64,000 bases of DNA, taken from the NCBI GenBank assembly GCA_034667725.1, contig JAXDQS010000010.1, forward strand, positions 217,937-281,936. The letters run 5' to 3'. The DNA is from Thermoplasmata archaeon. Lineage in GTDB: Archaea > Thermoplasmatota > E2 > JACPAO01 > JAHFTW01. Shown here piece after piece: positions 5,153-42,806 of this stretch (within the stretch, counting starts at the first letter, position 1; the number at the start of each line of letters is the position of its first letter). Under the pieces are notes generated by a model. It did not search any database and was not told the DNA's origin. It saw only the letters and a program-made list of their open reading frames with translations. Position numbers and translations under genes: made by a program.

Positions 5153-6523
5153 ATGGAACCCGTGCAGCCGCTGGGAGGCGGAGGCGCGGCGGAGGGTCCA
5201 CGGCACCGAGCTGGGAGGTTTCCTTCGTTGGCTGTCAATGACTTGTTTGGCCAGTTGCTCCAGGTCGAGCCCCTCTTCGTGAACAAGGAGGTCATGCGGG
5301 CCTCCTACACGCCCGACGACCTGCCGCACCGGGACACGGAGATCCGCTCGCTCGGCAGCCTGCTGGTCCCCGCCCTGCGCGGCGAGACCCCGTCGAACGT
5401 CTTCATCTACGGCAAGACCGGCACGGGCAAGACCGCCTGCGTCAAGTACGTCGGCAAGGAGCTCAGCCACAAGGGCGTCGAGCTCGGCAAGCGCGTCAAC
5501 CTCATCTACATCAACTGCGAGATCGTCGACACCCAGTACCGCGTCCTGCAGAACATCGCCAACGCCTTCGTCCCCGCAGAGAACTGGAACCACCGCATCC
5601 CCTTCACCGGCTGGCCCACGGACGAAGTGTACGAGGCGCTGCGGCGCTACGTCGACGGCTGGATGAAGGCCGACGACACCCAATGGGTCCGCGACCCCAG
5701 CCGCGTCGGCGGCGAGGTCACCATCATCGTGCTCGACGAGGTGGACAAGCTCAAGGGCGACGAGGTCCTCTACAACCTCACCCGCATCAACGGCGACCTG
5801 GCCCAGAACAAGGTCAGCGTCATCGGCATCTCGAACGACCTCAAGTTCACCGAGTTCCTCGACCCCCGCGTCAAGTCGTCCCTCGGCGAGGAATCGATGA
5901 TCTTCGCGCCCTACGACGCCAAGCAGCTCGAGGACATCCTGATGCAGCGCGCCACCATGGCGCTCAAGCTGAACGTCGTCCAGGACGGCGTCGTGCCCCT
6001 GTGCGCCGCCCTGGCCGCCCGCGAGCACGGCGACGCCCGCCGCGCCCTCGACCTCCTCCGCGTCGCCGCCGAATTGGCCGAGCGCGACCGCGCCCCCAAG
6101 GTCACCGACGCCCACGTCCGCATGGCCCAGAACAAGATCGAGCTGGACCGCATCAGCGAGGTCGTGCGCACCCTGCCCACCCAGAGCAAGCTCGTCCTGC
6201 TGGCCACCATCCTCGGCGAGGAGGCCAACCGCGACCAAGGCGTCCACACCCTCACCACCGGCGAGGTGTTCGACGTCTACAAGGACCTCTGCAAGCACAC
6301 CGGCAGCGACGTGCTGACCCAGCGCCGCATCACCGACCTCATCAGCGAGCTCGACATGCTCGGCATCTTCACGGCCCGCGTCATCTCGAAGGGCCGCTAC
6401 GGCCGCACCCGCGAGATCCAGATGAGCTGCCCCATCGACAGCACCAAGCGCGTGCTGGAGGAGGACGAGCTCATCCGGACGGTCGTGCAGCACAAGCCGA
6501 AGAAGCAGCATCGTCTGACTTGA
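5153..6523 (+). CDS. orc1: Orc1/Cdc6 replication initiator (AAA+ ATPase with C-terminal winged helix)
   Basis: Walker A GKTGTGKT, Walker B IIVLDEVD, and the conserved N-terminal YTPDDLPHRDTEI motif. Start uncertain: in-frame ATG at 5153 or TTG near 5228; the ORF-track start at 5000 is probably too far upstream. Confidence 0.85.
   Translation: MEPVQPLGGGGAAEGPRHRAGRFPSLAVNDLFGQLLQVEPLFVNKEVMRASYTPDDLPHRDTEIRSLGSLLVPALRGETPSNVFIYGKTGTGKTACVKYVGKELSHKGVELGKRVNLIYINCEIVDTQYRVLQNIANAFVPAENWNHRIPFTGWPTDEVYEALRRYVDGWMKADDTQWVRDPSRVGGEVTIIVLDEVDKLKGDEVLYNLTRINGDLAQNKVSVIGISNDLKFTEFLDPRVKSSLGEESMIFAPYDAKQLEDILMQRATMALKLNVVQDGVVPLCAALAAREHGDARRALDLLRVAAELAERDRAPKVTDAHVRMAQNKIELDRISEVVRTLPTQSKLVLLATILGEEANRDQGVHTLTTGEVFDVYKDLCKHTGSDVLTQRRITDLISELDMLGIFTARVISKGRYGRTREIQMSCPIDSTKRVLEEDELIRTVVQHKPKKQHRLT
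6485..6519 (+). repeat. Direct repeat copy 1 (last 35 nt of the orc1 coding sequence)
   Basis: gtgcagcacaagccgaagaagcagcatcgtctgac recurs 96 bp downstream. Confidence 0.7.
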
Positions 6524-6580: not shown

Positions 6581-6620
6581 GTGCAGCACAAGCCGAAGAA
6601 GCAGCATCGCATCGTCTGAC
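6581..6620 (+). repeat. Direct repeat copy 2 (duplicate of orc1 3' end with a 5-nt insertion)
   Basis: gtgcagcacaagccgaagaagcagcatcgCATCGtctgac; identical to copy 1 except for the inserted catcg. Confidence 0.7.
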
Positions 6621-6626
6621 GCCATC

Positions 6627-6668
6627 CACCGAGGACACCGAGACCACCGAAGTTCGGTGTCCTCGGTG
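6627..6668. terminator. Perfect 14-bp-stem hairpin between convergent orc1 and nob1
   Basis: caccgaggacaccg (6627-6640), 14-nt loop, cggtgtcctcggtg (6655-6668). Lies between two convergent stop codons. Confidence 0.4.
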
Positions 6669-7201: not shown

Positions 7202-7290
7202 GGCGCGGGATTCAGCCCTCGCGGTGATGAGGCTGCCGGGTCGCGTGCCGCCGCGGCGCCCTTTTCAACTTCCCTCCGGTCGCCGCGCCC

Positions 7291-12608: not shown

Positions 12609-13004
12609 ATGATGCCTGGAATGGGCGACACCCGCCAGATGGCCGCCATGATGAAGCGCATGGGCATCGAGATGCGCGACGTCGAGCAGGTCGAGGAGGT
12701 CGTGGTGCGCACCGCCACCAAGGAGTACCGCTTCAAGCGGCCCGAGGTGTCGATCATGAAGGCCCAAGGCCAGGAGACCTGGCAGATTCAGGGCAAGGCC
12801 GTCGCGTCCGACCGGGCCGGCGCCGCCGTGCCCCCGCCCGCCGTGCCTTCCGTGTCCTCCGCTCCTGCCGCGCCTTACGCCCCCTCGCCCGACGACGTCA
12901 AGGTCGTCATGGAGGCAGCCAAGGTCCCCGAGGCGAAGGCCTGCGAGGCGCTCCTGGCCACCGGCGGCGACCTGGCCGAGGCCATCCTGCGGCTGTCCGC
13001 CTAG
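12609..13004 (+). CDS. nac: Nascent polypeptide-associated complex protein (archaeal NAC alpha) with C-terminal UBA-like domain
   Basis: MMPGMGDTRQMAAMMKRMGIEMRDVEQVEEVV... matches the archaeal NAC N-terminus; C-terminal tail has the UBA-like AKACEALLATGGDLAEAILRL. Confidence 0.8.
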   Translation: MMPGMGDTRQMAAMMKRMGIEMRDVEQVEEVVVRTATKEYRFKRPEVSIMKAQGQETWQIQGKAVASDRAGAAVPPPAVPSVSSAPAAPYAPSPDDVKVVMEAAKVPEAKACEALLATGGDLAEAILRLSA

Positions 13005-13008
13005 AGAC

Positions 13009-13223
13009 GATTTCAAAATTCCAAGTGGCCTGCGCGCGCCGGTTTGCAAGGAGTGCAAGGAAGGCCGCAATCCGCCGCAAAGCGGCGCGCCCTTCGGGGC
13101 GGTTTGCCGCCCCCCAATACGGCGTCAGGGGGTCCTTGGCGGGCCTCCAGCCCGCCGGCGGACCCCCTTCCTTGGACTGCGATGGCCGGAAACCGCCGCA
13201 GGCCTTCTTGGAATTTTGAAATC
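13009..13223. repeat. ~215-bp imperfect palindromic element with AT-rich 17-bp terminal inverted repeats (MITE-like or structured RNA)
   Basis: GATTTCAAAATTCCAAG at 13009-13025 is the exact reverse complement of CTTGGAATTTTGAAATC at 13207-13223. Further arm pairing GGCCTGCG/CGCAGGCC, CGGTTT/AAACCG, CAAGGAAGG/CCTTCCTTG; internal hairpins GCCGCaaaGCGGC and CGCCCttcgGGGCG. Confidence 0.5.
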
Positions 13224-13228
13224 ATCTC

Positions 13229-14752
13229 TTAGGCCGTTTCGGCCTGGTCCGCCGCCAGCTGCCGGTCCCGGCTGCGCTGCACGAAGAACATCGGCACGCC
13301 GGCCAGGATCAGGCCGGACGCGATCAGCGCCTGCGCGAGGAACTTGAAGTAGATGATGCCGACCACGAACGCCGAGGCCGCCATGAACAGCAGCGGCACG
13401 AACGGGTAGAGCGGCGTCTTGAACGGGCGCTCGACGTCGGCGTGGGTGCCCTTGATCCCCAGCCATGGGACGCCGCGCATCCGGACGTGGGCCCACGAGG
13501 TCGGCACGTAGAACAGGAAGATGGCGAACACCACCATGATGACGAGCTGCTCGTAGCCGCCGGTCATCACGAGCAGGCTGGCCCAGATGGCGGTGAAGTA
13601 GATGGCCCACCCCGGGACCGAGTGCTTGTTGAGCGTGCCCATCGAGCCTAGCAGGCTGCCGTCGCGGCTGAAGGCGTAGAACACGCGGGGCCCCGTCAGC
13701 AGGAAGCCGTTGACCGTGCCGAACACCGACACGAGGGCGACGGCGCTGATGAAGTCGTAGCCGCCGATCCCCAGCACGGCGCCTGCCGCCTCGGGGGCGA
13801 TGCGCTGGTTGGCGACCCCAAGCTCGACCGCCCGGTCGATGGGGATGACGTGGAAGTAGCTCGACGCCAGCGCGATGTAGATGGCGCTCGTGATGAGCGG
13901 GCCGACGATGAGTGCCACGGGCAGGTTGCGCCGGGCGTTGCGGACCTCGGAGGCGACGTAGGTGGCCTGCGGCCAGCCGTCGAACGCGAACAGCGACAAC
14001 GCAAGGGCGCCGCCGAACGCGGCCACGAGGGCGCCGCCGCCCATGCCCTCCGGCGCGAAGCCGCCGCCTTGGGCCTGGTAGGCCTGCGGGTGGGCGGTGC
14101 CGAACACGAACACGATGACGACCAGGCTGGCCAGGCCCAGCACCTTGGCGATGGTGCTGACGTTCTGGATGCGGCCGGCGATGGCGGCGCCGCGCGAGTT
14201 GATGAACGCCAACAGCAGGATGACGGCGATGGCCAAGAACGCAGGCCCGTAGGCGGGGATCGTGATGGGGTCGATGTGGACCAGCTTGCGGGTGCAGGCG
14301 CCGGCGAGGCTCTCCTCGACGCAGGGGCCGGTGTCCACGAGGCTCGTGAGGGCGAACTTCGTGCCCGGCATCGTGCCGCCCATACGCTCGACGAAGTAGG
14401 TGGCGAACCGGCTGAACGCCACCGCGACGCCGGCGATGATGCCGCTCTGGATGACCCAGAACTGCGACCACCCGAACAGGTAGGCGCTGAACCGGCCGAT
14501 GCCCTCCTTGAGGAAGTGGTACTGGCCGCCGGCGCGCGGGAACATGCTCGACAGCTCCGCGAACGTCAAGGCACCCAGCACCGTCAGCACCGCGCCGGCC
14601 ACCATCACCAAGAGGATGAGGCCCGGGCTCGGCAGCACCTCCGCCATGTCCGCGGGCAGCAGCAGGATGCCGGAGCCGATCATCGAGCCGACGATGATCG
14701 TGATGGCCTCGAACAGCCGCAGGTTCTGCTTGAACTTGATAGGCCCGCCCAT
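13229..14752 (-). CDS. Amino acid permease (APC superfamily transporter)
   Basis: 507 aa, ~12 TM segments, typical APC N-terminal region (ITIIVGSMIGSGILLLP...FAELSSMFPRAGGQYHFL). Confidence 0.75.
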   Translation of the reverse strand: MGGPIKFKQNLRLFEAITIIVGSMIGSGILLLPADMAEVLPSPGLILLVMVAGAVLTVLGALTFAELSSMFPRAGGQYHFLKEGIGRFSAYLFGWSQFWVIQSGIIAGVAVAFSRFATYFVERMGGTMPGTKFALTSLVDTGPCVEESLAGACTRKLVHIDPITIPAYGPAFLAIAVILLLAFINSRGAAIAGRIQNVSTIAKVLGLASLVVIVFVFGTAHPQAYQAQGGGFAPEGMGGGALVAAFGGALALSLFAFDGWPQATYVASEVRNARRNLPVALIVGPLITSAIYIALASSYFHVIPIDRAVELGVANQRIAPEAAGAVLGIGGYDFISAVALVSVFGTVNGFLLTGPRVFYAFSRDGSLLGSMGTLNKHSVPGWAIYFTAIWASLLVMTGGYEQLVIMVVFAIFLFYVPTSWAHVRMRGVPWLGIKGTHADVERPFKTPLYPFVPLLFMAASAFVVGIIYFKFLAQALIASGLILAGVPMFFVQRSRDRQLAADQAETA

Positions 14753-31037: not shown

Positions 31038-31043
31038 TTATAT
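31038..31043 (+). promoter_or_regulatory. TATA-like box, leaderless spacing to the ATG at 31069
   Basis: ttatat in a GC-rich context ~29 nt upstream of the ATG that begins the signal peptide MRPLLLVATALLMF. Confidence 0.3.
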
Positions 31044-31068
31044 GGGGACGGCGCCCATCGACCTACCC

Positions 31069-33003
31069 ATGCGCCCCCTCCTCTTGGTGGCCACCGCCCT
31101 GCTGATGTTCGCGTTCGTGGCCAGCGCCCCGCACGCGGACGCCCAAGGCGCTTCCACACTTACCGTCACCATCTGCGCCCAGCCGACCTATTCCGAGTCC
31201 AAGGACACGGCCCTGTGCGAGGGCCGCGGCTTGGCGGGCGCCACCGTCCGCGTCACCCGCAACGGCCCGCTCGGCAACAACGTCGGCGCCGTCGACCGCA
31301 GCGCGACCACCGACGCCAACGGTGTCGCCGCCTTCGACGCCTTGGCGGACGGCACCTACAACCTCCAGGCGACCCGCGCCGGCTTCGCCGCGCGCACGGC
31401 CACCGTCGAGGTCGCGGGCGCCACCAAGGCGGCCTACACCCTCGCCGGCGTCCCGGTCGAGTTCCAAGGCATCGTCAAGGACGCCGCCGGCAAGCCGGTG
31501 GCCGAGGCCATCGTCACGGTGTGCTGCTCGCGCGACTCCTCGTACCAGCCGCCCGTCGCCACCGGCGAGGACGGCCTGTTCCGGGTCGCGACCACGGGCG
31601 GCTACCAGTCGGTCGGCGCCTACGACGCCCCAGGCTTCGTGCCTTACAACGCCGAGGTGCTGGTGGACGGCAGCCGCCAGGACATCACCCTGGAGCGGGT
31701 CCCCGCCCAGGACGCCGAACTCCACGGCGTCGTGCGCGACCAGGACGGCAAGCCCGTCGCCGGCCTGCGCATCGACGCCAACCCCTCGTGCTGCCACACC
31801 GAGCCGATGCCGGCCGACGAGCCGGGCGCGCCCGCGTCGTCGGTGCCCCCCAGCCCCGGCTACGCCTACTACGGCAACCACACCACGACCGCCAGCGACG
31901 GCTCCTACGCGATCCACGTCTACGGCGGCGCCACCGTCGGCCTGCGCGTCGGCTCCGAGGACTTCGCCCCGCTCTACAAGGACGTCCAGGTCGGCAAGGG
32001 CGCCTCCGTGCGCGCGGACCTCGACGTCAAGCGCTACCCGCCCCGCGACGCCCGCATCGAGGGCCGCGTCACCGACGGCGACGGCCACGGCATCGGCTCG
32101 GTCGCGATCACGGTCAACAACCCCGAGTTCGGCCGCACCGAGCAAGGCGGCCAATGGTGCGCCGCCGCCCCCGTGCCGATGATGGCAGAGGGCGACGCCA
32201 TCGCCAAGCCCGCCATCTGGGCCGGCCCGGAGTGCTCCCTCAGCGTGCAGGCCGACGGCAGCTTCTCCGGCCTCGTGACCCCCGGCTACAGCATCGTCAC
32301 CGTGTACTACGTCTGCATGGAGGGCGACTGCGCCGACGGCTACTACCCGTCCGTCCGCACCCTGGTGCTGCGCTCCGGCACCCAGCGCCTCGACGTCGCC
32401 CTCGTGCCCCGCCCCGGCCCCGACGCCACCCTGTCCGGCTACCTCGTGGACGCCGACCAGCGCGAAGGCATCGCCGGCCCCGACGCCCGCATCGACCTCT
32501 ACAACCTCGACAACGGCGCCTGGGGCAGCGCGGTCGCCGACGCGCAAGGCTCCTACAAGATCCGGCTCCGCAGCGGCCTCCACCAGGTCACCGCCTACGC
32601 CGACGGCCACCTCCACTGGGAAGGCATCGTCAGGGTCGAGCCCGGCGACAACGCGCTCGACATCCTCATGACGGCCGGCCAGGACACCGGCTACGGCGGC
32701 TGCTGCTACCTCGCGCAGGACAGCAAGGGCATGGCCACCACCGCCACCGCCTCCCCGGCCCCGATGACGCCGGGCGACGACGGCGGCAGCCGCGTCGCCG
32801 AGCAGGAGCTGCGCCAGAACCTCGCCGCCAACACGCCCGCCTTCGAGGACCTCAACGGCGGCCTCGGCCCGTACGACCCGGACGAGCGCCCCGCCCCGAA
32901 CAACGGCACCGGCACCCGCGCCAGCCCGGCGCTGGGCCTGCTGACGGTGCTGGGCGTCGCGGCCGCGATGGTCGTGGCGCGGCGCAAGGGCCGCGAATCC
33001 TAG
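31069..33003 (+). CDS. Surface protein with carboxypeptidase-regulatory-like beta-sandwich repeats and C-terminal TM anchor
   Basis: Signal peptide; repeated GxxGAxVxV...DxxGxxxF...DGTYxL modules; C-terminus SPALGLLTVLGVAAAMVVARRKGRES. The ORF-track start at 31042 would begin inside the TATA-like box. Confidence 0.55.
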   Translation: MRPLLLVATALLMFAFVASAPHADAQGASTLTVTICAQPTYSESKDTALCEGRGLAGATVRVTRNGPLGNNVGAVDRSATTDANGVAAFDALADGTYNLQATRAGFAARTATVEVAGATKAAYTLAGVPVEFQGIVKDAAGKPVAEAIVTVCCSRDSSYQPPVATGEDGLFRVATTGGYQSVGAYDAPGFVPYNAEVLVDGSRQDITLERVPAQDAELHGVVRDQDGKPVAGLRIDANPSCCHTEPMPADEPGAPASSVPPSPGYAYYGNHTTTASDGSYAIHVYGGATVGLRVGSEDFAPLYKDVQVGKGASVRADLDVKRYPPRDARIEGRVTDGDGHGIGSVAITVNNPEFGRTEQGGQWCAAAPVPMMAEGDAIAKPAIWAGPECSLSVQADGSFSGLVTPGYSIVTVYYVCMEGDCADGYYPSVRTLVLRSGTQRLDVALVPRPGPDATLSGYLVDADQREGIAGPDARIDLYNLDNGAWGSAVADAQGSYKIRLRSGLHQVTAYADGHLHWEGIVRVEPGDNALDILMTAGQDTGYGGCCYLAQDSKGMATTATASPAPMTPGDDGGSRVAEQELRQNLAANTPAFEDLNGGLGPYDPDERPAPNNGTGTRASPALGLLTVLGVAAAMVVARRKGRES

Positions 33004-33803
33004 CGAAGCGAGGACGCGGCCTTCGCCAGCTCCACGAGCCCCGCCGCCGTGCGCGTGCCGAACCAGGTGAGCGCCTCGCCGTCCACCACCCGCACCCGCC
33101 CGGGCGCGCCGCACGGCCCGAGGCCGGCGGTGTCGACCGGCTTGCGGTGGAACGGGAACGGCTCCGTGGGCAGCAGCGTCCACGCCGCCCCGGCGGCGCG
33201 GACCTCGGCGTCCGTGACCTCGAAGTAGCGCGGCCCCGCGTGGTCCCCGAAGACGTTGCGCAGGCCCGCCGCCGCCAGCATCGCGCTGGGGTAGCTGGTG
33301 CCGTCGAACGTCATCCACGGATGCCAGATCGGGCAGAACACCGGCACCGGCGACGCGGGCCGGGGCAGCGCCGCGACGGCAGCGTCGAAGCCGGCCCGCC
33401 AATGCTGGGCGGCCGCCTCGGCGCCGCCGCCGACCCGCCGCGCCAGGCGCAGCACGAAGGCCGCCGCGTCGTGCGGGGTCGCGATGTCGCTCCACAGCAC
33501 CTCGACGCCGTGGGCTTCCAGCGCGTCCACCAGCGCCTTGGGGTTCTCGTCCTTGTCGGCCACCACGAGCGTGGGCCGCAGCGCGAGGATCTTGTCGAGG
33601 CTGGCGTCCTTGGTGCCGCCCACGTGCGGGACCGTCTTGGCGGCCTCCGGCGCGATGCAGAACCGGGTGCGGCCGACGACCTGGCCGCCGGCGCCGAGGT
33701 CGAACAAGGTCTCGGTGTGGCTCGGCACCAGGCTCACGATGCGCTGCACGGACGGGGCAAGGCGTCGCGCGCTTGGGCCTTCCGTCGCGTCCTCCGACCA
33801 CAA
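33000..33803 (-). CDS. Periplasmic-binding-protein-like (BtuF/TroA-fold) ABC substrate-binding protein
   Basis: 267 aa, class III SBP-like pattern (IVSLVPSHTETLFDLGAGGQVVGRT..., LRPTLVVADKDEN). No obvious signal peptide. Confidence 0.55.
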   Translation of the reverse strand: MWSEDATEGPSARRLAPSVQRIVSLVPSHTETLFDLGAGGQVVGRTRFCIAPEAAKTVPHVGGTKDASLDKILALRPTLVVADKDENPKALVDALEAHGVEVLWSDIATPHDAAAFVLRLARRVGGGAEAAAQHWRAGFDAAVAALPRPASPVPVFCPIWHPWMTFDGTSYPSAMLAAAGLRNVFGDHAGPRYFEVTDAEVRAAGAAWTLLPTEPFPFHRKPVDTAGLGPCGAPGRVRVVDGEALTWFGTRTAAGLVELAKAASSLR

Positions 33804-33835: not shown

Positions 33836-35119
33836 ATGGAGGAGGCGGCGCCCACCGAGAGCCCCTTGCCGGGCGCCGGCGCCAAGGGCAAGCCGGTGCG
33901 CGTCCACCCCTACGCGCTCGAGCTGTCCACGGCCGCCGAGCTGCGCCGCGACCCGCGCATGGTCACCCTGTTCTGGGCCGGCCTGGGCACGGCGCTGGTG
34001 CTGCTGGGATTGGGGCTCGCCAACCGCTTCAGCCCCTGCCTGAACGGCGTCGGCCCCGAGCCCTGCGCCACCCCCGCGGCATGGACCAGCTGGGTCCAGC
34101 TTCCCCTGTTCGGCGGCCTTGCCCTGCTGGGCTTCGGCTTCGTGCAGCGCCAATGGGCCCGCCGCGTCACGCTTGCCGGCTGGCTGCTGTTCGGGTTCTA
34201 CTGGGCGCTCACCGCGCAGGACCTGTTCGTGGCCGAGGGCGGCGACATCGTCAACCTCTGCTTCGCCATCGTCGGCGTCTACTTCTTCGTCTACCTGGCC
34301 TACCACCAATGGCTCTCCGAGGCGCGCGGCATCGAGAACCTCACCGTCCGGTTCCTCAACATCGCCACCTTCGTCGCCGCCGGCTCCTACTTCGTCATCG
34401 ACAAGATCGAGCCGGTCCGCAAATGGCTCATCCTCACCGTCAGCCGCCACACCGAATGGATGCTGGGGCTGTTCGGGCAAGGCGCCGACGCCGGCCTCCG
34501 GGCCGTCTACAACCCCGCCGGCAGCACGAGCGACTTCCAGGCCGACCTGGCCCGCTTCTACTACGAGGGCCACCTCAACCACTGCCCCTCGCAGCCGAGC
34601 GACTGGTTCTCCAGCCTGATGCACTGGGACCCGTTCGCCCGCCAAGCCCTCGACGCCTGCCGCGACTTCTCGGCCCACGAGGCCGTCATCGTCCCCGTCT
34701 CGATCATCCTGGCCTGCACCGCCCTCCAGTCCATCATGCTGTTCGTCGGCCTGTTCATGGGCACCCCGGCCCCATGGAAGCGGCGCCTGCTGGCGTCGGC
34801 CATCGTCGCCGCCGTCGTGTACGTCCTCAACCTGCTGCGGAACACCGGCATCGTGTGGTTCTACGGCCAAGGCGAGGCCTCGTTCTGGATGATGCACGAC
34901 GCCGTCGGCAAGGGCGGCAGCCTGGTCGCCATGATCCTCATCGCGTTCGCCGCCTTCGCCTGGTTCCCCGAGTTCCTCAAGGCGCTCGTCGGCGTGCTGG
35001 ACCTGCCGCACCGCGACGGCCCCATCGAGCGCACGCTGCGCCTTGGCAGGCGGCGGCCCGACCAAGGCGCGCCGCCAGCGGAGCCGCCGGCCGAGACGCC
35101 GGCACCCCCCGTCCACTGA
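33836..35119 (+). CDS. Polytopic membrane protein, candidate exosortase/archaeosortase-family enzyme
   Basis: 427 aa, ~8 TM helices. Cys293 sits in a TM helix (SIILACTAL) and NLLRN lies 42 residues later, reminiscent of the archaeosortase catalytic Cys/Arg arrangement recalled from the literature. Family assignment is tentative. Confidence 0.4.
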   Translation: MEEAAPTESPLPGAGAKGKPVRVHPYALELSTAAELRRDPRMVTLFWAGLGTALVLLGLGLANRFSPCLNGVGPEPCATPAAWTSWVQLPLFGGLALLGFGFVQRQWARRVTLAGWLLFGFYWALTAQDLFVAEGGDIVNLCFAIVGVYFFVYLAYHQWLSEARGIENLTVRFLNIATFVAAGSYFVIDKIEPVRKWLILTVSRHTEWMLGLFGQGADAGLRAVYNPAGSTSDFQADLARFYYEGHLNHCPSQPSDWFSSLMHWDPFARQALDACRDFSAHEAVIVPVSIILACTALQSIMLFVGLFMGTPAPWKRRLLASAIVAAVVYVLNLLRNTGIVWFYGQGEASFWMMHDAVGKGGSLVAMILIAFAAFAWFPEFLKALVGVLDLPHRDGPIERTLRLGRRRPDQGAPPAEPPAETPAPPVH

Positions 35120-35177
35120 AGGCGGGGTCGCGCCCGGCCTCCGATTTAATCATTTGCGCTCTGGGCCAGTGTTGGAC

Positions 35178-38100
35178 ATGGGCTGCAAACGGTCAAGAAG
35201 GCACGGCGGTCGCTGGGCCTTGACAATGGTCGTCCACCGCTTGTCCCCGCTCGCCGCTGCCTTCATCCTGGCAGTCTCCACCCTCGCCGCCGCGCCGGCG
35301 TCGGCCCTCATCGTCGGCCCCGTCGGCCCCATCGACCCCGACCTCATCAACGTAGACTGCGAGGACAGTGCCGCCGTTAGGGCCGCCTGCAACGCGGTGG
35401 CCACCCTCACGGAGGACCCTGGCGAGATCACCGTCGGGTGCGGCGACGGGTACGCCGGCAACGCCTGCCGCGAAGCCTTGGACACCCTCGAGGACCCGCC
35501 CGCGGCCTGCGAGGCCGTCACGTTCGCGATCTGCGAGGCGGTGGCCCGGCTGCTGGCCGACGACGGCGGCGACCCCGTCGGCCAGTGCCTGCACGACCTC
35601 GGCTTCGACACCGTCGTGATGCCCCAGCCCGGCACCAGCATCGTCAACCTGGACTGCTCGCAGCTTGGCGAGACCCTGGCGAGCCTCTACGTCATCCTGG
35701 ACAACCTGGCGGCGCGGGGCGGCGCCACCCTGAACTCCTGCCTGGCGCTGTTGGGCGACGGCATTGCCAACCTGGAGTCGAGCGGCCCGCCACTGGTGGA
35801 TTGCGAAGGCCTCGGCGAGACCGCCCGCGACACCGTCCAGGCCGCCATGGACCTGGTGGACCGCGAAGCCGACGACGCCATGCGCACCGTCGAGGCGTGC
35901 GTCTACGGCGCGCCCCCGCCGTCCGCCGGCGCCGCGCTGTGCCGCTCCCTCTACAACACGCTCGTCCTCTACCTCGCCTTCGCCGTCCAGACCGGCCTCC
36001 AGGCGGCCAACCACCAGCTTGAGTGCCAAGGCCTCGACACCGTCTCCATCACGGCGCCCGCCCCCGAGGGCGACCCGCCCGCCACCTTCGGCCTGCCGGA
36101 GGAGTGCGTGACCGCCCACCTGCTCTTGACCGCCGTCCAGGAGGCCGTCGCCAACGTGCTGCGCATCGCCGGCGACCTCGCGCCCTCCGTCTCGCTCTGT
36201 GTCGCCGAGGTCCCCGGCGGCCCCACCACCGTCACCCTCGACTGCCGCTACGTCGAGCGCGTCGTGCGCACCGTCGGCGACGCCGAGGCCACCGTCATGC
36301 TCGTCGTGCAGCAATACCTCGACGACTGCCAAGGCCGCGGCGCGCCCCCCGAGGGCCTGCCGAGCTGCCGCGAGCAGGTCGAGAACCTGCAGCGCATCGT
36401 GGACCGCAACTTCGCCGGCGCCTGGCGTGCCGCCCAGGAAGCCGCCGCCGACCTGCAGGCCTGCGCCGCGGCCGCCGCCGCGAGCACCTGCGCGGCCACG
36501 CAAGACTGCGCCCTGCTGCCCTGCGTCCTGCCCGGCGCCTGCGACACCGGCTGCGCCAGCAACGGCACCACCTCCTACCCGGCGCGCGCCAACGGCACCG
36601 CCACCGACGCCCGCATCGGCAACGTCTTCGAGTTCGTGGCCCCCGTCACGGGCGCCGCGGTCCCGGTCGACGTCCACGACTACGACGGGGACGGCATCCC
36701 CGACCTGCTGGACCCCGTCAACCTCCCCTCCGAGACCCTGCGCACGACCTCCGGCGCCGACAACCTGACGCTGCTGGACGGCCTCGGCGAGCAAGGCTTC
36801 GTCCTCTTGATCGAGCCCGGCCACCGGGAGGCCCAGCTCGTGGCCGCCGACCCGCTCGGCGTGGCCCTGTCGCTGCTGCCCGTCGAGGTGCTCGACGCCG
36901 CCACCACCCTCCAGCTTTTGGGCCAGACCCACGGCGGCCACGTCGCCGACCTGCTGGCCAGCGCCCTCAACGAGAACATGACGGTGAACGTCACCTGGGT
37001 CGTCCCGCAGCTGCCCACCGTCGTCCCCCTGCATTGGGCCGGCGGCGCCATCCCCGCCGACGGCAGCTGGCTCATGGCCCGCTCCGACCCGACCCGCCGC
37101 GTCACGTTGGCGCTCTCCGGCCTTGACGTCAAGCTGGAGGCCCCCAGCGCCAGCCACGCCAGCACCGACCCCGACCTGTCGTACCGCTGGGAGTTCCTCA
37201 ACCTCTGGGGCAAGAAGGGCTTCTGCTTCGACCCCACCACCTACACCGGCGGCACCGGCCAGTGCGAAGGCAAGGCCGAGCCCGGCTGGCTGCGCGCCTA
37301 CAGCGGCCGCGCCCACTACGCCCTCCAGGCCGTCGCCGAGAACCTGGAGCGCGGCCTGTCCGACCTGGCGGCGACCCCGGCGGGCACCAACGGCACCGCC
37401 CTGGAGCCCATCCTGGCGCCGACCGAGGGCCTGCGCGGCGACGAGGTCCCCGCCGACGCCATCGACCTGTTCGACCCCTCCTCGCTGGTGCACGCCATCG
37501 GCGACAACAGCACCTCGTTCCCGCCCGGCGTCGGCGTCGACTACCAGGTCCCGGCCCGCGAGCCGCGCTCCCTGCCGCGCCCCGCCATCCTGCAAGCCCC
37601 CGACGCCCTGCTCACGACCGACGTGGACCTGTCGGCCTACCGCCCGACGCGCACCTTCCGCTTCGACGCCCAGTTCTACGAGACCCCCGGCACGCCGCGC
37701 GACCTGCAGCTGCTGACGCTGCACATCACGCCGGCCGACGGCAACGACGCCGCCCAGACCTTCGTGCTCGACGGCCGCGCCTTCACGGAGTACCTGCGCC
37801 TGCTGCCCGGCGAGCAGCTCGCCCTCGATATCGACGCCGATCACTTGGACGGCTTCGTCCAGGTCTCCAAGGACGTCAACGCCGACGGCTGGGAGGACCT
37901 CGTCGTGCAGGTGCCCCACTTCAGCACCGTCACCATGGACGTCCACAGCGACAACTCGATCGCCTACCCCATGTGGACCATGGTCAAGATGACCAGCGCC
38001 ACCGAGGGCTGGCTCACCGGCCCTTACGGCGCCATGTACAAGTACAGCGCCGGCCGCGTCTACCGTCACGACATCCCCGGCCTCGCGGGCCAGATGCGCT

Positions 38101-41100
38101 CCATCGCGCTGCACGTCGTCGGCCCCAACGACGTCTGGGTGGCGGGCGACGGCGACTGCAACCTCGCCGACCCGTCGCCGTTCATCGCCCACTACTACTA
38201 CGGCAGCTGGAGCATCTTCCGCACGTCGCAGGTCGGCCCCGGCTGGGCCTGCGAGGGCTTCATCACCATCTGGATGGACCCCACCGGCTCCTTCGGCTAC
38301 GCGGGCGGCACCGACGGCATGTGGTTCAAGTACGCCAGCGGCGCGTGGAACCCCGCCCCCAGCCCCGCGCCCGGCGCCTGCGTCCGCGACATCGCCTTCG
38401 ACAGCAGCGGCCGCGGCTACGTCGGCGCCAACACCGACTTGTGCCTGGCCAGCGGCCGCCCCGCCATCAGTTACTGGGACGGCAGCTCGTGGAGCAGCCA
38501 CAGCACCTACGGCAGCACCGAGATCTGGAGCGTCATGGACGGCTCCGGCCAATGGGCCGCCGCCATTCCCAAGGACCCGGCCACCCACGGCATCCTGCAA
38601 CAGTCCGGCTCGTCCTGGTCCCTCGCCTCCGTCCCCGTTCCGGCGGGCCATTACTACGGCATGACGCGCGCGCCCGACAGCCGCCTCTGGTTCAGCGCCA
38701 CCGACCGCAGCAACCGCGGCTTCCTGGTCGAACGCGACCCGTCCGGCACCTGGACGACGCACTGGTTCCAGACCCGCATCGGCTTCCTGCGCGACGTCTC
38801 GATGTCGTCCAGCACGGCGGGCCTCGTCGTCGGCGACAAGAACATCCTGGCCATCCAGGTCTCGTCGGCCGCCGCCGCCTCCGCCGACTGGATCTGGGAC
38901 AGCCTGTCGCCGACCTCCGGCACCACCAGCACGACGTTCGCCGGCCGCGACTCCGGCACCCGCGACCCCGACAGCGGCAGCGGCACCGTCGCGCACACCT
39001 GGAACTGGGGCGACGGCTCGGCCAACGACCTGGCCGCCAACGCCGACCACGTCTACCAGGCGCCCGGCACCTACGCCGTCACCCACCAGGTGCGTGCCAG
39101 CAGCACCGGCCAGGCCAACGCGCACGGCTGGACCGTCACGGTGAACCCCCAGTCCACCAGCATCGGCCCCAGCACCTCGGACTCGCTGCCCGCCGGCACC
39201 CGCGTGGCCCCGAAGTACTACCAGTACACCAACGCGGCCAGCGACGGCCAGGCGCATGACTTCCGCGTCGTGCTCGGCGGCGCTGCCGGCGTCAAGATGA
39301 CGATCCGCAAGGGCACCGGCATGGGCGACTTCAGCGCCGGCGGCAACTGGCCCAACTACGGCGCCGCCGGCCGCGACCTGTCCGGCCCCATCGCCTACGG
39401 CCAGTCCATCACCATCCGGGTCGAGCAGGACACCAGCGTGAGCCCCTACGGCGGCTCCTACACCCTCACGGTGACGCAGCTGCCGCCCCCGCCCAACCCG
39501 GCCTTGAGCAGCCTGGTGCCGCAGCCGATGGAGGCGCTGACCCGCGGCTACGAGGAGCTGACGTTCCGCGTCACCTGGACCGACACGCAAGGCTACCAGC
39601 CCCGCGACGCCAGCGGCGCCACCAGCCCGCCCACCATCACGCTGGACACCAACGGCGACGGCGCCCTGGAGACCTACTCCATGCACCTGGACCGGCCGCT
39701 GTTCACCGGCTCCACCTACAAGGCGATCTACTCGTACTCGACCTACCTCAAGGAAGGCAGCGGCACCCAGCCGATCTACAAGGCTTGGGACACGCAGCCC
39801 TACCAGCAGGTCGCCACCGGCGCCTGGATCTACGCCCGCGCCACCGTCCTCAAGGCCTACGACTTCGAGGCCGACGCCGTCGACCGCCTCCCGGCAGGCT
39901 TCGCCAACGTCCCGCTGGCCGGCCACCCGGTGAGCTACTGGCACGTCACCGACACCGCCAAGGCGGGCACGCCCGACCGCGTCGCCTTCGGCGCGCACGG
40001 CAAGGCCCTCTGGTTCGGCCAGGAGTCCTCCGGGAACTACGTCGACGCCGACGGCCGCGCCCCGGGCGGCGCCCTCGAGACGCCGGTGCACGACCTGAAC
40101 CGCATGGACAAGCCGGTGCTGTCGTTCGCGTCGCTCTACGAGACCCAGGACGACGGCAGCAGCATCGACGTCAAGCAGGTCCACATCAAGGCCCGCGACC
40201 CCGGCGGCGTCTGGGGCGGCTGGGTGCTGCTGCAGGCCGTCCACGGCCCCGGCTTCCTGCCCGGCCGCTGGAACACCGTGGCCGCCAGCCTCGCCGACTA
40301 CGCCGGCAAGGAGGTCGTGCTGCGCTTCCAGTTCCAGGCCGACAACGCCAACAACGGCTACCTCGGCTGGTACGTCGACGACATCGTGCTCGGCAGCGAC
40401 GCCGACGGCGACCTGATCCCCGACCTGAAGGAGGCCAACCGCGTCATCGGGCTCCGCAACGGCGCCGTCGGCCCCGTCAACGTCGCCCCCGGCCAGACCG
40501 GCGCCAGCTACGTCAACCGCGTCAGCACCTCCGGCTTCCAGGGTGTCGTCGCCGAGGCCGTCCTCTACTCCGAGCGGCCGCAGGACCTGCGCGTCGAGCT
40601 GCTGGTGCCGCCGGCGGGCACGCTCCCCGGCGACTTCCCCGCGCTCACGACCGAATTCCGGCCGTTCAAGCTGAACCCGGCCGCGGCGCCCGCCACCGAC
40701 ACGGTGTGCGGCGTCACCAGCCCGGTGCGCAACTCCCTGTCGCCCTGGTACGCGACCTACCCGAACCTGCTCTTGGACCCCGCCACCGGCTTCGACAACC
40801 CCCGCATCGGCGGCGGCTTCGGCCCCGACTCGCGCCCGACCGTCGTGCCGATCCACGCCCTGGAGTTCAAGCGGGTCGACGGCGTCGGCCTTGCCATCAA
40901 GGCGGACCTCACCGAATGCCTCAAGGCCGCCGGCTTGAGCGAGTTCGGCGTCCACGACGTCGTGCTGCGCGTCCAGAACACCGCCGCCTCCGGCACCGCG
41001 ACCATCGAGTCGTTCGCGGTCACCGGCGTCGGCCGGTCGTCGATGTTCAGCGCCCGCAGCGCCGCCATCGGCATGGGCGACTACCGCGCCAGCGACGGCG

Positions 41101-42806
41101 GCTGGCTGGGCGGCGGCACGCCGCTGGGCCCCGACGCCGACTGGGACGGCATGGCGCGCGGCGAGGACGGCAACGACATGGTGCCGACCTACGTGCCGTT
41201 GGTCTTCGTCGACTACAACAAGCCCGAGGAGGGCCTGCAGTTCGCCCTCGACAGCAAGCGCGTCGTGCTGTCCGTCGACATCCTGGCCACCACCGGCACC
41301 ACCACGCGCGACGTCGCGACCCCGGTGGCCCAGGCCTACGGCGAGTGGCGCAACTACGTCCTGCCGGCCAGCCGGTTCGCCGGCGCCGACAGCCTGCGCA
41401 TCGTCGTCAGCCTGGCCGGCGGCTCGGTCATGACCATCGAGGCGGCCTTCAAGGACCGCCAGCCGCAGCTGGCCAGCCTCACCGAGTCCTTCCTGGCCGA
41501 CCCCGGCAACCCCTCGCCGGAGCCTGGCAGCCACTACCTGACCGACGCCGAGCGCAACCTCGGCTACATCATGGGCGGCGCCAAGGCCCTCTACTGGGTC
41601 TACAAGGCGGGCAAGCTCATCACGGGCGTCGGGGCCGCCGAGACCGCCCTCGAAGGGGCCACCCTGGTCGTCAAGACCGTCGGCAAGTGGGCCATCGTCA
41701 AGGTCGCCAAGGAGGGCCTCAAGTCGGCCTACGCCTCCAGTGGCGAGCTCACCATCTACGAGAAGACCTCGCGCCACAACATCTACAAGGGCCGGACCTC
41801 GCGCGGCGACTACCCCGAGGTCTACGACCTCTTGGACGAGGCCATCACCAACGCCCAAGGCCCGTACCCCACCATCGGCGGCAACAACGTCTGGTTCTAC
41901 GAGAAGGCGGTGGACCCGTCGACGGGCGCCATCGCCAAGCTCTACGTGCTGGAGACCCGCCAGGACGGCGACCTGTTCCGCGGCTGGGGCCACTCGCTTG
42001 CCAGCTGGGGCCAGATGGTGTCGCGGCCCTACACGGCCGGCGCGGACGCCAACACCGTCCACGCCACCGACGTCTCGGACATCCAGAGCATCGAGCGGCT
42101 GGCCAAGGTCGCCGGCCCGTACCCGAGCTTCGGGAGCTTCCTGTGCGCCGTCACTTGCTATGCCGAGGTGGACGGCGACCCCGGCCGCGTCCACCTGCAA
42201 GCCTACGGCGTCAACTGGGACAACCGCCACGACAGCAAGCTCGACGTCGACGCCGGCTGGGTCACGGCGGCGCGCTACGCCGCCTACCGCCCGAACTCGT
42301 GGGTGCCTTCCATCAACGAGGGCCAGCGCGACCTCCAGCTCGCGGGCTGGATCCGGTCGTACCGCTTCATCCACGACAACGGCGTCCACGCCTCGGCCTC
42401 GCAGGACGCGAAGGCCTTCTGGGGCGACGACTACGCCTCGAACCCAGGATGCGCTGCCGAGACCACGCGCCGCTGCCAGGCGCCGACCGCGACCTTCGAC
42501 GGCCACGGCGTCTTCGCCCAGGGCTTCACCCTGCGCTGGACGACCTCGTCGAGCCCCACGGTCCTCAAGACCGACAAGGCGGCCAGCTTCGGCCTCTACA
42601 CCAACTCCGACCGCGGGCCCTGGGATGGCCGCTCCGGCATCGAAAAGAGGCGCGACACCCTGGCGACGTCGCTCGGCACCCCGGGCTCCGGCCATGACGC
42701 GAACCTCATCCTGGCGCTCGACGCCAGCGGCGCCACCTGGGAGGACGACCACTACTACCCAGAGTACGGCCCGCACACCTTGGAGGAGTTCTACGACGTC
42801 CCGTAG
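35178..42806 (+). CDS. Giant secreted multidomain protein (~2540 aa)
   Basis: Single uninterrupted frame. Signal peptide, Cys-rich helical N-terminal ~450 aa, propeller-like W/Y/G-rich repeats, a PKD-like domain (TVAHTWNWGDGSANDLAANADHVYQAPGTYAVTHQV), a GWYVDDIVLG motif and a ~600-aa K/Y/I-rich C-terminal module. The antisense ORF is low-complexity. Confidence 0.7.
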   Translation: MGCKRSRRHGGRWALTMVVHRLSPLAAAFILAVSTLAAAPASALIVGPVGPIDPDLINVDCEDSAAVRAACNAVATLTEDPGEITVGCGDGYAGNACREALDTLEDPPAACEAVTFAICEAVARLLADDGGDPVGQCLHDLGFDTVVMPQPGTSIVNLDCSQLGETLASLYVILDNLAARGGATLNSCLALLGDGIANLESSGPPLVDCEGLGETARDTVQAAMDLVDREADDAMRTVEACVYGAPPPSAGAALCRSLYNTLVLYLAFAVQTGLQAANHQLECQGLDTVSITAPAPEGDPPATFGLPEECVTAHLLLTAVQEAVANVLRIAGDLAPSVSLCVAEVPGGPTTVTLDCRYVERVVRTVGDAEATVMLVVQQYLDDCQGRGAPPEGLPSCREQVENLQRIVDRNFAGAWRAAQEAAADLQACAAAAAASTCAATQDCALLPCVLPGACDTGCASNGTTSYPARANGTATDARIGNVFEFVAPVTGAAVPVDVHDYDGDGIPDLLDPVNLPSETLRTTSGADNLTLLDGLGEQGFVLLIEPGHREAQLVAADPLGVALSLLPVEVLDAATTLQLLGQTHGGHVADLLASALNENMTVNVTWVVPQLPTVVPLHWAGGAIPADGSWLMARSDPTRRVTLALSGLDVKLEAPSASHASTDPDLSYRWEFLNLWGKKGFCFDPTTYTGGTGQCEGKAEPGWLRAYSGRAHYALQAVAENLERGLSDLAATPAGTNGTALEPILAPTEGLRGDEVPADAIDLFDPSSLVHAIGDNSTSFPPGVGVDYQVPAREPRSLPRPAILQAPDALLTTDVDLSAYRPTRTFRFDAQFYETPGTPRDLQLLTLHITPADGNDAAQTFVLDGRAFTEYLRLLPGEQLALDIDADHLDGFVQVSKDVNADGWEDLVVQVPHFSTVTMDVHSDNSIAYPMWTMVKMTSATEGWLTGPYGAMYKYSAGRVYRHDIPGLAGQMRSIALHVVGPNDVWVAGDGDCNLADPSPFIAHYYYGSWSIFRTSQVGPGWACEGFITIWMDPTGSFGYAGGTDGMWFKYASGAWNPAPSPAPGACVRDIAFDSSGRGYVGANTDLCLASGRPAISYWDGSSWSSHSTYGSTEIWSVMDGSGQWAAAIPKDPATHGILQQSGSSWSLASVPVPAGHYYGMTRAPDSRLWFSATDRSNRGFLVERDPSGTWTTHWFQTRIGFLRDVSMSSSTAGLVVGDKNILAIQVSSAAAASADWIWDSLSPTSGTTSTTFAGRDSGTRDPDSGSGTVAHTWNWGDGSANDLAANADHVYQAPGTYAVTHQVRASSTGQANAHGWTVTVNPQSTSIGPSTSDSLPAGTRVAPKYYQYTNAASDGQAHDFRVVLGGAAGVKMTIRKGTGMGDFSAGGNWPNYGAAGRDLSGPIAYGQSITIRVEQDTSVSPYGGSYTLTVTQLPPPPNPALSSLVPQPMEALTRGYEELTFRVTWTDTQGYQPRDASGATSPPTITLDTNGDGALETYSMHLDRPLFTGSTYKAIYSYSTYLKEGSGTQPIYKAWDTQPYQQVATGAWIYARATVLKAYDFEADAVDRLPAGFANVPLAGHPVSYWHVTDTAKAGTPDRVAFGAHGKALWFGQESSGNYVDADGRAPGGALETPVHDLNRMDKPVLSFASLYETQDDGSSIDVKQVHIKARDPGGVWGGWVLLQAVHGPGFLPGRWNTVAASLADYAGKEVVLRFQFQADNANNGYLGWYVDDIVLGSDADGDLIPDLKEANRVIGLRNGAVGPVNVAPGQTGASYVNRVSTSGFQGVVAEAVLYSERPQDLRVELLVPPAGTLPGDFPALTTEFRPFKLNPAAAPATDTVCGVTSPVRNSLSPWYATYPNLLLDPATGFDNPRIGGGFGPDSRPTVVPIHALEFKRVDGVGLAIKADLTECLKAAGLSEFGVHDVVLRVQNTAASGTATIESFAVTGVGRSSMFSARSAAIGMGDYRASDGGWLGGGTPLGPDADWDGMARGEDGNDMVPTYVPLVFVDYNKPEEGLQFALDSKRVVLSVDILATTGTTTRDVATPVAQAYGEWRNYVLPASRFAGADSLRIVVSLAGGSVMTIEAAFKDRQPQLASLTESFLADPGNPSPEPGSHYLTDAERNLGYIMGGAKALYWVYKAGKLITGVGAAETALEGATLVVKTVGKWAIVKVAKEGLKSAYASSGELTIYEKTSRHNIYKGRTSRGDYPEVYDLLDEAITNAQGPYPTIGGNNVWFYEKAVDPSTGAIAKLYVLETRQDGDLFRGWGHSLASWGQMVSRPYTAGADANTVHATDVSDIQSIERLAKVAGPYPSFGSFLCAVTCYAEVDGDPGRVHLQAYGVNWDNRHDSKLDVDAGWVTAARYAAYRPNSWVPSINEGQRDLQLAGWIRSYRFIHDNGVHASASQDAKAFWGDDYASNPGCAAETTRRCQAPTATFDGHGVFAQGFTLRWTTSSSPTVLKTDKAASFGLYTNSDRGPWDGRSGIEKRRDTLATSLGTPGSGHDANLILALDASGATWEDDHYYPEYGPHTLEEFYDVP

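Follow-up and report, generated by a model that had tools for sequence, protein, structure and literature searches.

A 226-bp palindromic element between convergent NAC and permease genes in a Thermoplasmata archaeon, a candidate non-autonomous transposon

The locus and the anatomy of the element

In the stretch of archaeal DNA analysed here (64 kb, referred to below as the window) the gene for nascent polypeptide-associated complex alpha (NAC) converges with the gene for an amino-acid/polyamine permease of 507 aa, and a palindromic element spanning 13003/13004-13229, i.e. 226-227 bp, lies between the stop codons of the two. NAC was assigned from its translation, from Pfam PF01849 in the JGI gene call and from homologues, and the permease from PF00324 and PF13520 (the source names it an APA family antiporter); both proteins are also present in the NCBI MAG 'Thermoplasmata archaeon'. 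The neighbourhood is of a housekeeping character, with Cdc6/Orc1, malate/lactate dehydrogenase, a YjeF-type kinase, NAC, the amino-acid permease, L7Ae/S28e/L24e, thermosome, UvrB and SRP54. The features of the locus are as follows.

12621-13004, plus strand: NAC gene, its stop codon TAG (13002-13004) at the left junction of the insertion
13002-13003: left TA, proposed copy of a TA target-site duplication, read from the sequence
13003-13025, plus strand: left terminal inverted repeat (TIR), AGAGACGATTTCAAAATTCCAAG, AT-rich, holding a TATA-like TTTCAAAATT box
13027-13064, plus strand: left sub-terminal imperfect repeat, pairing with 13166-13204 (GGCCTGCG/CGCAGGCC; AGTGCAAGGAAGG/CCTTCCTTGGACT)
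13065-13165, plus strand: GC-rich core without overall palindromic symmetry, with local hairpins including 13127-13168
13088-13101: possible cUUCGg hairpin in the core, C88-C92 with G97-G101
13106-13119: variable patch, holding six of the seven substitutions relative to the JGI assembly (the remaining one lies at 13205)
13166-13204, plus strand: right sub-terminal imperfect repeat, from the inverted-repeat search
13207-13229, plus strand: right TIR, CTTGGAATTTTGAAATCATCTCT
13229-14752, minus strand: permease gene, convergent with NAC, its stop codon TAA being T13229-A13231 in the minus-strand reading
13230-13231: right TA, proposed second copy of the target duplication

The locus had been described before from its letters alone (the sequence-only reading), with perfect AT-rich terminal inverted repeats of 17 bp, and these are confirmed: the perfect 17-mer GATTTCAAAATTCCAAG occurs at exactly two sites in the 64 kb, 13009-13025 on the plus and 13207-13223 on the minus strand, and two matches were reached in 0 of 100 dinucleotide shuffles. 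The inverted repeat grows to 23 nt with 22 of 23 positions complementary (13003-13025 / 13207-13229), encloses the 17-mer and ranks first among all inverted repeats of the window. The symmetry said to extend into both flanking stop codons can be seen directly; with one bulged T it passes both of them and reaches G12999 and C13234 (GCCTAGAGA / TCTCTTAGGC). The register of the two ends is shifted by one base (GAGAC... vs AGAGAT...). The window is about 70% GC, with local values between 0.63 and 0.79, and the element ends are its most AT-rich spots. Since they make up two of the six AT-rich 16-nt islands in the 64 kb, the terminal repeats are compositionally foreign.

The long imperfect hairpin that had been proposed is borne out on both strands, with z about -10 on each. 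Folded as RNA, the 236-nt region reaches -147.2 kcal/mol on the plus strand (z -9.98 vs shuffles) and -151.5 kcal/mol on the minus strand (z -9.91), and folded as DNA -85.7 (z -9.64). When the 23-nt ends are removed the interior has a z of -4.65, and the 101-nt core by itself a z of only -2.3. The UUCG-loop stem pointed out by the sequence-only reading exists in the sequence as a cUUCGg hairpin, but it is outcompeted by stronger helices and lies outside the predicted minimum-energy fold.

The element is non-coding, because its GC3 is below that of the genes (0.61-0.70 across all six frames vs 0.84-1.0 in the genes of the window) and no frame has a protein homologue. A search with the 70-aa minus-strand ORF returned none, the fully open plus frame had no match among 1.84 billion representative proteins, and five of the six frames, searched as a concatenate (the sixth being the 70-aa ORF, searched separately), matched no protein either. 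The JGI annotation calls no gene within the element.

Comparison with relatives and the insertion site

Five loci of related Thermoplasmatota were picked by NAC homology; they belong to other species, not to strains of the same one. In the closest of them (L122, NAC 86% identical) a spacer of 6 nt is followed by a convergent gene which aligns with the permease of the window. In L124 (NAC 71%) the spacer is 13 nt and a convergent permease (Pfam AA_permease) follows, in L139 (NAC 60%) it is 34 nt and the convergent gene is unannotated, and in L138 (NAC 58%) the 75 nt between NAC and the contig end hold no trace of the element. The downstream DNA of the fifth locus (L123, NAC 77%) is wholly different. 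About 360 nt of much lower GC content (621-979 of L123) follow NAC there, and then a different gene starts (MKRHLNPAGG...), so that the NAC end of this locus is either a synteny break or foreign DNA. In the alignment with the relatives a clean gap of about 220 nt falls at the element, and the empty sites of these species are too diverged for base-exact breakpoints. Because the spacers measure only 6, 13 and 34 nt in three relatives, the roughly 226 bp are a lineage-specific insertion and not a conserved or ancestral RNA gene or terminator of the locus.

The flanks read GCC-TA-(GAGACGATTTC...GAAATCATCTCT)-TA-GGC. If the element and one TA are taken out, the reconstructed empty site is GCCTAGGC (GC-CTAG-GC), in which NAC and the permease, each ending in GCC TAG on its own strand, would overlap by CTAG. 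Such a site is realistic, since another convergent pair in the window, 31042-33003 (plus) and 33000-33803 (minus), overlaps by exactly CTAG at 33000-33003. GCC on both flanks needs no special explanation because it is the last sense codon in 8 of the 44 called genes. The stops are TAG (NAC) and TAA (permease) here and mostly TGA for both genes in the relatives. Both TA and CTAG are scarce in the window (564 observed vs 1229 expected, and 15 observed vs about 67 expected, respectively), and at least 4 of the 15 CTAG occurrences fall on the stop codon of a called gene.

It has been described that IS630/Tc1-mariner elements insert at TA with TA duplication and that the family occurs in Archaea (PMC2170065). 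A preference for TA within CTAG is given for IS630 in the same source, citing Tenzen & Ohtsubo 1991. A TA duplication inside CTAG would be the signature of IS630/Tc1-mariner elements. The geometry of the locus is consistent with it and not diagnostic of it, as the TA found on both sides (13002-13003 and 13230-13231) is two bases long and may be part of the repeat or chance.

Searches for further copies and for a source of mobility gave negative results over the following ranges. No second copy was found in the window or in a further 5.2 kb of the contig (about 69 kb altogether, a small fraction of the genome), the same 69 kb hold no transposase or integrase, and no copy is present in the five related loci. 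The exact 20-mer, searched in one genome per GTDB species (the source genome not being included), gave one chance match in a Cytophagia MAG. Among the matches listed for the exact 17-mer in metagenome contigs (at least 120 stretches) none was element-like; these were single chance matches in unrelated, mostly AT-rich contigs. Viral contigs yielded 12 single chance matches, none element-like, and distant blastn against plasmids and phages yielded only GC-rich chance matches of 30-50 nt. Within the window the element is not an inverted copy of neighbouring DNA.

A second assembly and the rival explanations

A second assembly of the locus is available in contig Ga0467041_0000015 of the JGI metagenome 3300044738, which is collinear with the window and identical to it throughout the roughly 48.3 kb that the two share beside the element. 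Seven substitutions separate the two, every one inside the element: six in 13106-13119 and one at 13205. With the JGI bases at 13106, 13108 and 13112, the 15 nt of 13098-13112 match the reverse complement of 13183-13197 without a mismatch. Five of the seven variant bases are paired in the long hairpin of the JGI version (-163 kcal/mol), whereas the same five are unpaired in the window version (-147 kcal/mol), where a local 7-bp hairpin (13096-13102 / 13107-13113) forms instead. The changes are not compensatory and therefore lend no support to a conserved RNA fold.

Two origins of the differences fit: quasi-palindrome template switching, that is homogenisation of the arms, or assemblers which chose different paralogous or variant branches. 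The concept of quasi-palindrome template switching comes from PMC8604942 and PMC8794818. Like the hotspots of that process, the element carries clustered substitutions in an imperfect inverted repeat, and one variant perfects 15 nt against the other arm. In contrast to them, the template accounts for only three of the seven changes, and mixing of paralogues by the assembler explains the data equally well. Confinement of all differences to the element is expected if paralogous copies or variant alleles exist, and the paralogue or variant-copy explanation would be indirect evidence for further copies. The element flags a repeat or variant hotspot at which two assemblies disagree.

An explanation without mobility is that a quasi-palindromic spacer evolved locally, either to terminate transcription in both directions or to stabilise the RNAs of both genes by a 3' hairpin. 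The element occupies precisely the gap between convergent genes and has a strong fold on either strand, a U4 run stands in the descending arm of each strand, at about 13216 on the plus and about 13016 on the minus strand, and the convergent cdc6/PIN pair of the same window also has a perfect intergenic hairpin of 15 bp. Moreover, template switching can build and perfect hairpins (PMC8794818), and the JGI variant resembles arm homogenisation. We regard this explanation as unlikely all the same, given that four relatives lack the element and three of these have spacers of only 6-34 nt, that the AT-rich ends resemble nothing local, and that the apparent local terminators are T5 runs of the CCTCCTTTTTCC type while the element has no T5 and the terminator scan was empty. 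The scan for bacterial-style terminator patterns found nothing inside the element; T5 or A5 runs are lacking in it, T4 and A4 occurring only within the stem arms, and the element has neither the hairpin plus U-tract of an intrinsic terminator nor an archaeal oligo-T terminator. The few T5 runs that trail genes in the window (2046, 23300, 28073) lie in pyrimidine-rich CCTCCTTTTTCC contexts and are probably the oligo-T terminators of this archaeon. As an account of origin, the bidirectional terminator suggested by the sequence-only reading is not supported, in view of the short spacers of the relatives (6-34 nt) and the different look of the apparent local terminators. A role as spacer and an origin by insertion are compatible, as an inserted element could have gained a terminator or hairpin role, and such a secondary role is possible.

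It is also conceivable that the element is a self-contained small non-coding RNA gene, perhaps a mobile one, whose ends would combine an inward BRE/TATA-like promoter with a T-run terminator of the opposite strand. The modest AT boxes that local genes carry some 30 nt ahead of their start codons (Mdh CTTTTCAAC; SRP54 CTTCAAATC; NAC ATTCAAGCTT) look similar to the TTTCAAAATT box in the ends, for which reason the ends could act as archaeal TATA-like boxes. A TTCAANWT-like pattern occurs seven times in the window, twice at promoter positions and twice in the ends, and structure is also found in the interior when the ends are left aside (z -4.65). The promoter resemblance comes from very few examples and its orientation is ambiguous. 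An RNA which began about 25 nt inside the TATA box would be without the outer stem, and the terminal symmetry would therefore serve no purpose at the RNA level. The element lacks conservation at the locus, the two versions differ at five paired positions with no compensation and with different local folds, and Rfam offers no match (15.7 bits vs a gathering score of 37). With these points against it, an RNA gene appears quite improbable, and the small structured RNA of the sequence-only reading, having no Rfam match, no counterpart at the locus in relatives and no fold common to its two versions, is not sustained.

The Rfam result is uniform. At the gathering threshold no family was detected anywhere in the window, the permissive scan of the element region returned noise only (the 15.7 bits mentioned above), and the JGI version of the element likewise had no match. 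No tRNA or tmRNA was found in the 64 kb; the window is thus without tRNA or gathering-level Rfam family, though genes of SRP54 and ribosomal proteins are present. Specific classes of RNA and DNA elements were considered separately. Weak matches to Pyrobaculum sRNA (17.8 and 13.7 bits) pointed to an H/ACA sRNA, which was rejected as the scores lie far under the threshold and inspection revealed no correctly placed ACA box and no K-turn. C/D box sRNA, SRP RNA, RNase P RNA and a BHB processing stem were rejected on anatomy or context, as were a replication origin (ORB) and a DGR. For a retron msr/msd or an integron attC no reverse transcriptase or integrase was found among the Pfam-annotated genes within 10 kb on either side, the neighbours being the NAC, YjeF-type and permease genes.

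As regards promoters in general, many genes of the window show a modest AT box roughly 30 nt before the start codon (CTTTTCAA, CTTCAAAT, GCTATAAT, TTTATGCA; e.g. at 7264, 12589 and about 46928), which suggests TATA boxes and leaderless mRNAs.

An assembly artefact, either a chimera or a hairpin-derived palindrome, is highly improbable: palindromes are error-prone in assembly and the sole differences between the two assemblies sit inside the element, but it is present in two independent assemblies (contigs of 369 kb from JGI and 487 kb from the NCBI MAG) whose versions agree at the ends and in 220 of 227 bases, it is not an inverted copy of neighbouring DNA, and both flanking genes end cleanly in stops at its edges.

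The transposon reading and known elements

The palindrome of 215 bp exists as described, and the element is of an ordinary kind with two minor curiosities. The explanation we favour, with a probability of roughly 0.55, is that it is a non-autonomous TIR transposon, i.e. a copy of a miniature inverted-repeat element (MITE) or a deletion derivative of an insertion sequence. It is probably of the TA-duplicating IS630/Tc1-mariner kind, placed in the overlapping stop codons of convergent genes. The match with MITEs is drawn because the size of the element, its repeats, its intergenic location and its hairpin fit the general description of prokaryotic MITEs, in which size, repeats, intergenic site and a stable hairpin transcript are named (PMC10969869). 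The element is shorter than 500 bp without coding capacity, carries TIRs and has empty sites in other species. Of the possibilities raised by the sequence-only reading the MITE-like one is best supported, by the insertion, the TIRs, the non-coding interior and the TA flanks, and what it lacks is a second copy in about 69 kb. The element is a candidate and is not yet to be filed as a member of a MITE family.

Beyond the directly observed repeats, fold, lack of coding capacity, absence from relatives and TA/CTAG geometry, we infer the transposase family, the mobility and any role at the RNA level, and the course of events proposed is the following. In one lineage of Thermoplasmata, a DDE transposase of the IS630/Tc1-mariner type, working by cut and paste, would have recognised the AT-rich 23-nt ends. 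It would have integrated the element where NAC and the permease gene converge, into the TA of the CTAG at the overlapping stops (GCC-TA-GGC), duplicating the TA. The first base of the element would keep the TAG of NAC and the last would turn the permease stop into TAA. Alternatively, within the same transposon reading, the element may be an insertion sequence whose interior was deleted in situ. The transcripts of NAC and of the permease gene would enter the element, each being able to fold a hairpin of about 230 nt, and read-through transcripts of both would carry the full hairpin with its U4 run. Both genes may share the hairpin as a structure at their 3' ends, or it may keep convergent transcription from the two sides apart.

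MITEs mobilised by IS630/Tc1-mariner elements include RUP of pneumococci and Nezha of cyanobacteria. With the insertion sequences and MITEs of this group the element shares TIRs of about 20-30 nt, and its flanks, which reconstruct GC-CTAG-GC, would fit their TA insertion with duplication and the CTAG preference of IS630. It differs from them in that about 69 kb yielded neither a transposase nor an insertion sequence whose ends match, that one copy is known, that the TA is 2 nt and that the ends are shifted in register by one base. TA duplication is also a feature of the Correia elements of Neisseria. These repeat-enclosed elements are palindromic MITEs, an example of 204 bp being cited, which are co-transcribed with their neighbours as a long hairpin, have promoter-like sequences in their ends and affect mRNA processing (PMC10969869). 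The size is similar, both are palindromic and the ends of both are promoter-like, although in the element here this is a prediction. The Correia elements are bacterial, exceed 100 per genome, have an IHF site and are cleaved by RNase III, whereas the element described here is archaeal, solitary so far and GC-rich inside, by which it also differs from most MITEs. RNase III is generally missing from Archaea.

Archaeal MITEs have been described as non-autonomous TIR elements in intergenic DNA, namely SM1-SM4 of Sulfolobus and elements of Halobacterium and Haloquadratum (PMC10969869). The element is likened to them as a non-autonomous TIR element in archaeal intergenic DNA, by description and not by sequence; in contrast to it, those families have 25-44 copies and recognisable parent insertion sequences. 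In the literature searched no MITE family has been described in Thermoplasmata.

A bolder proposal, which we hold to be improbable, is that the element belongs to an undescribed family of miniature transposons of Thermoplasmata which targets CTAG/TA. Their AT-rich ends would serve both as TATA-like boxes and as T-run terminators, they would land at gene ends, rebuild the stops and provide a bidirectional hairpin 3' end, and their arms would mutate in bursts by template switching. Landing at gene ends would follow because TA and CTAG are scarce in a GC-rich genome and concentrated in stop codons.

If the element is mobile, it would be one of the early MITEs known from uncultured Thermoplasmata of high GC content, and it would show how, in GC-rich genomes, elements that target TA/CTAG are directed to stop codons and can donate both stops and 3' structure to two genes at once. 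It also cautions that lineage-specific palindromes should not be annotated as conserved RNAs. The practical value is modest and no long-standing question hinges on the element.

Some minor observations concern other parts of the window. A very large ORF (about 2,530-2,590 aa, 35043-42806) has only a weak PKD-domain match and belongs to several PKD/TSP3/He_PIG surface-protein genes in the window. About 35 nt at the end of cdc6/orc1 (stop 6521-6523) recur 96 nt further on, together with a CATCG duplication of 5 nt. The direct repeat is exact over 29 nt (6485-6513 and 6581-6609), and its copies flank a GC-rich segment of about 60 nt. A tandem duplication, a small insertion or the scar of an integration may account for this arrangement. 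Shortly past it, between the convergent cdc6 and PIN genes, lies a perfect hairpin of 15 bp (6627-6641 / 6654-6668).
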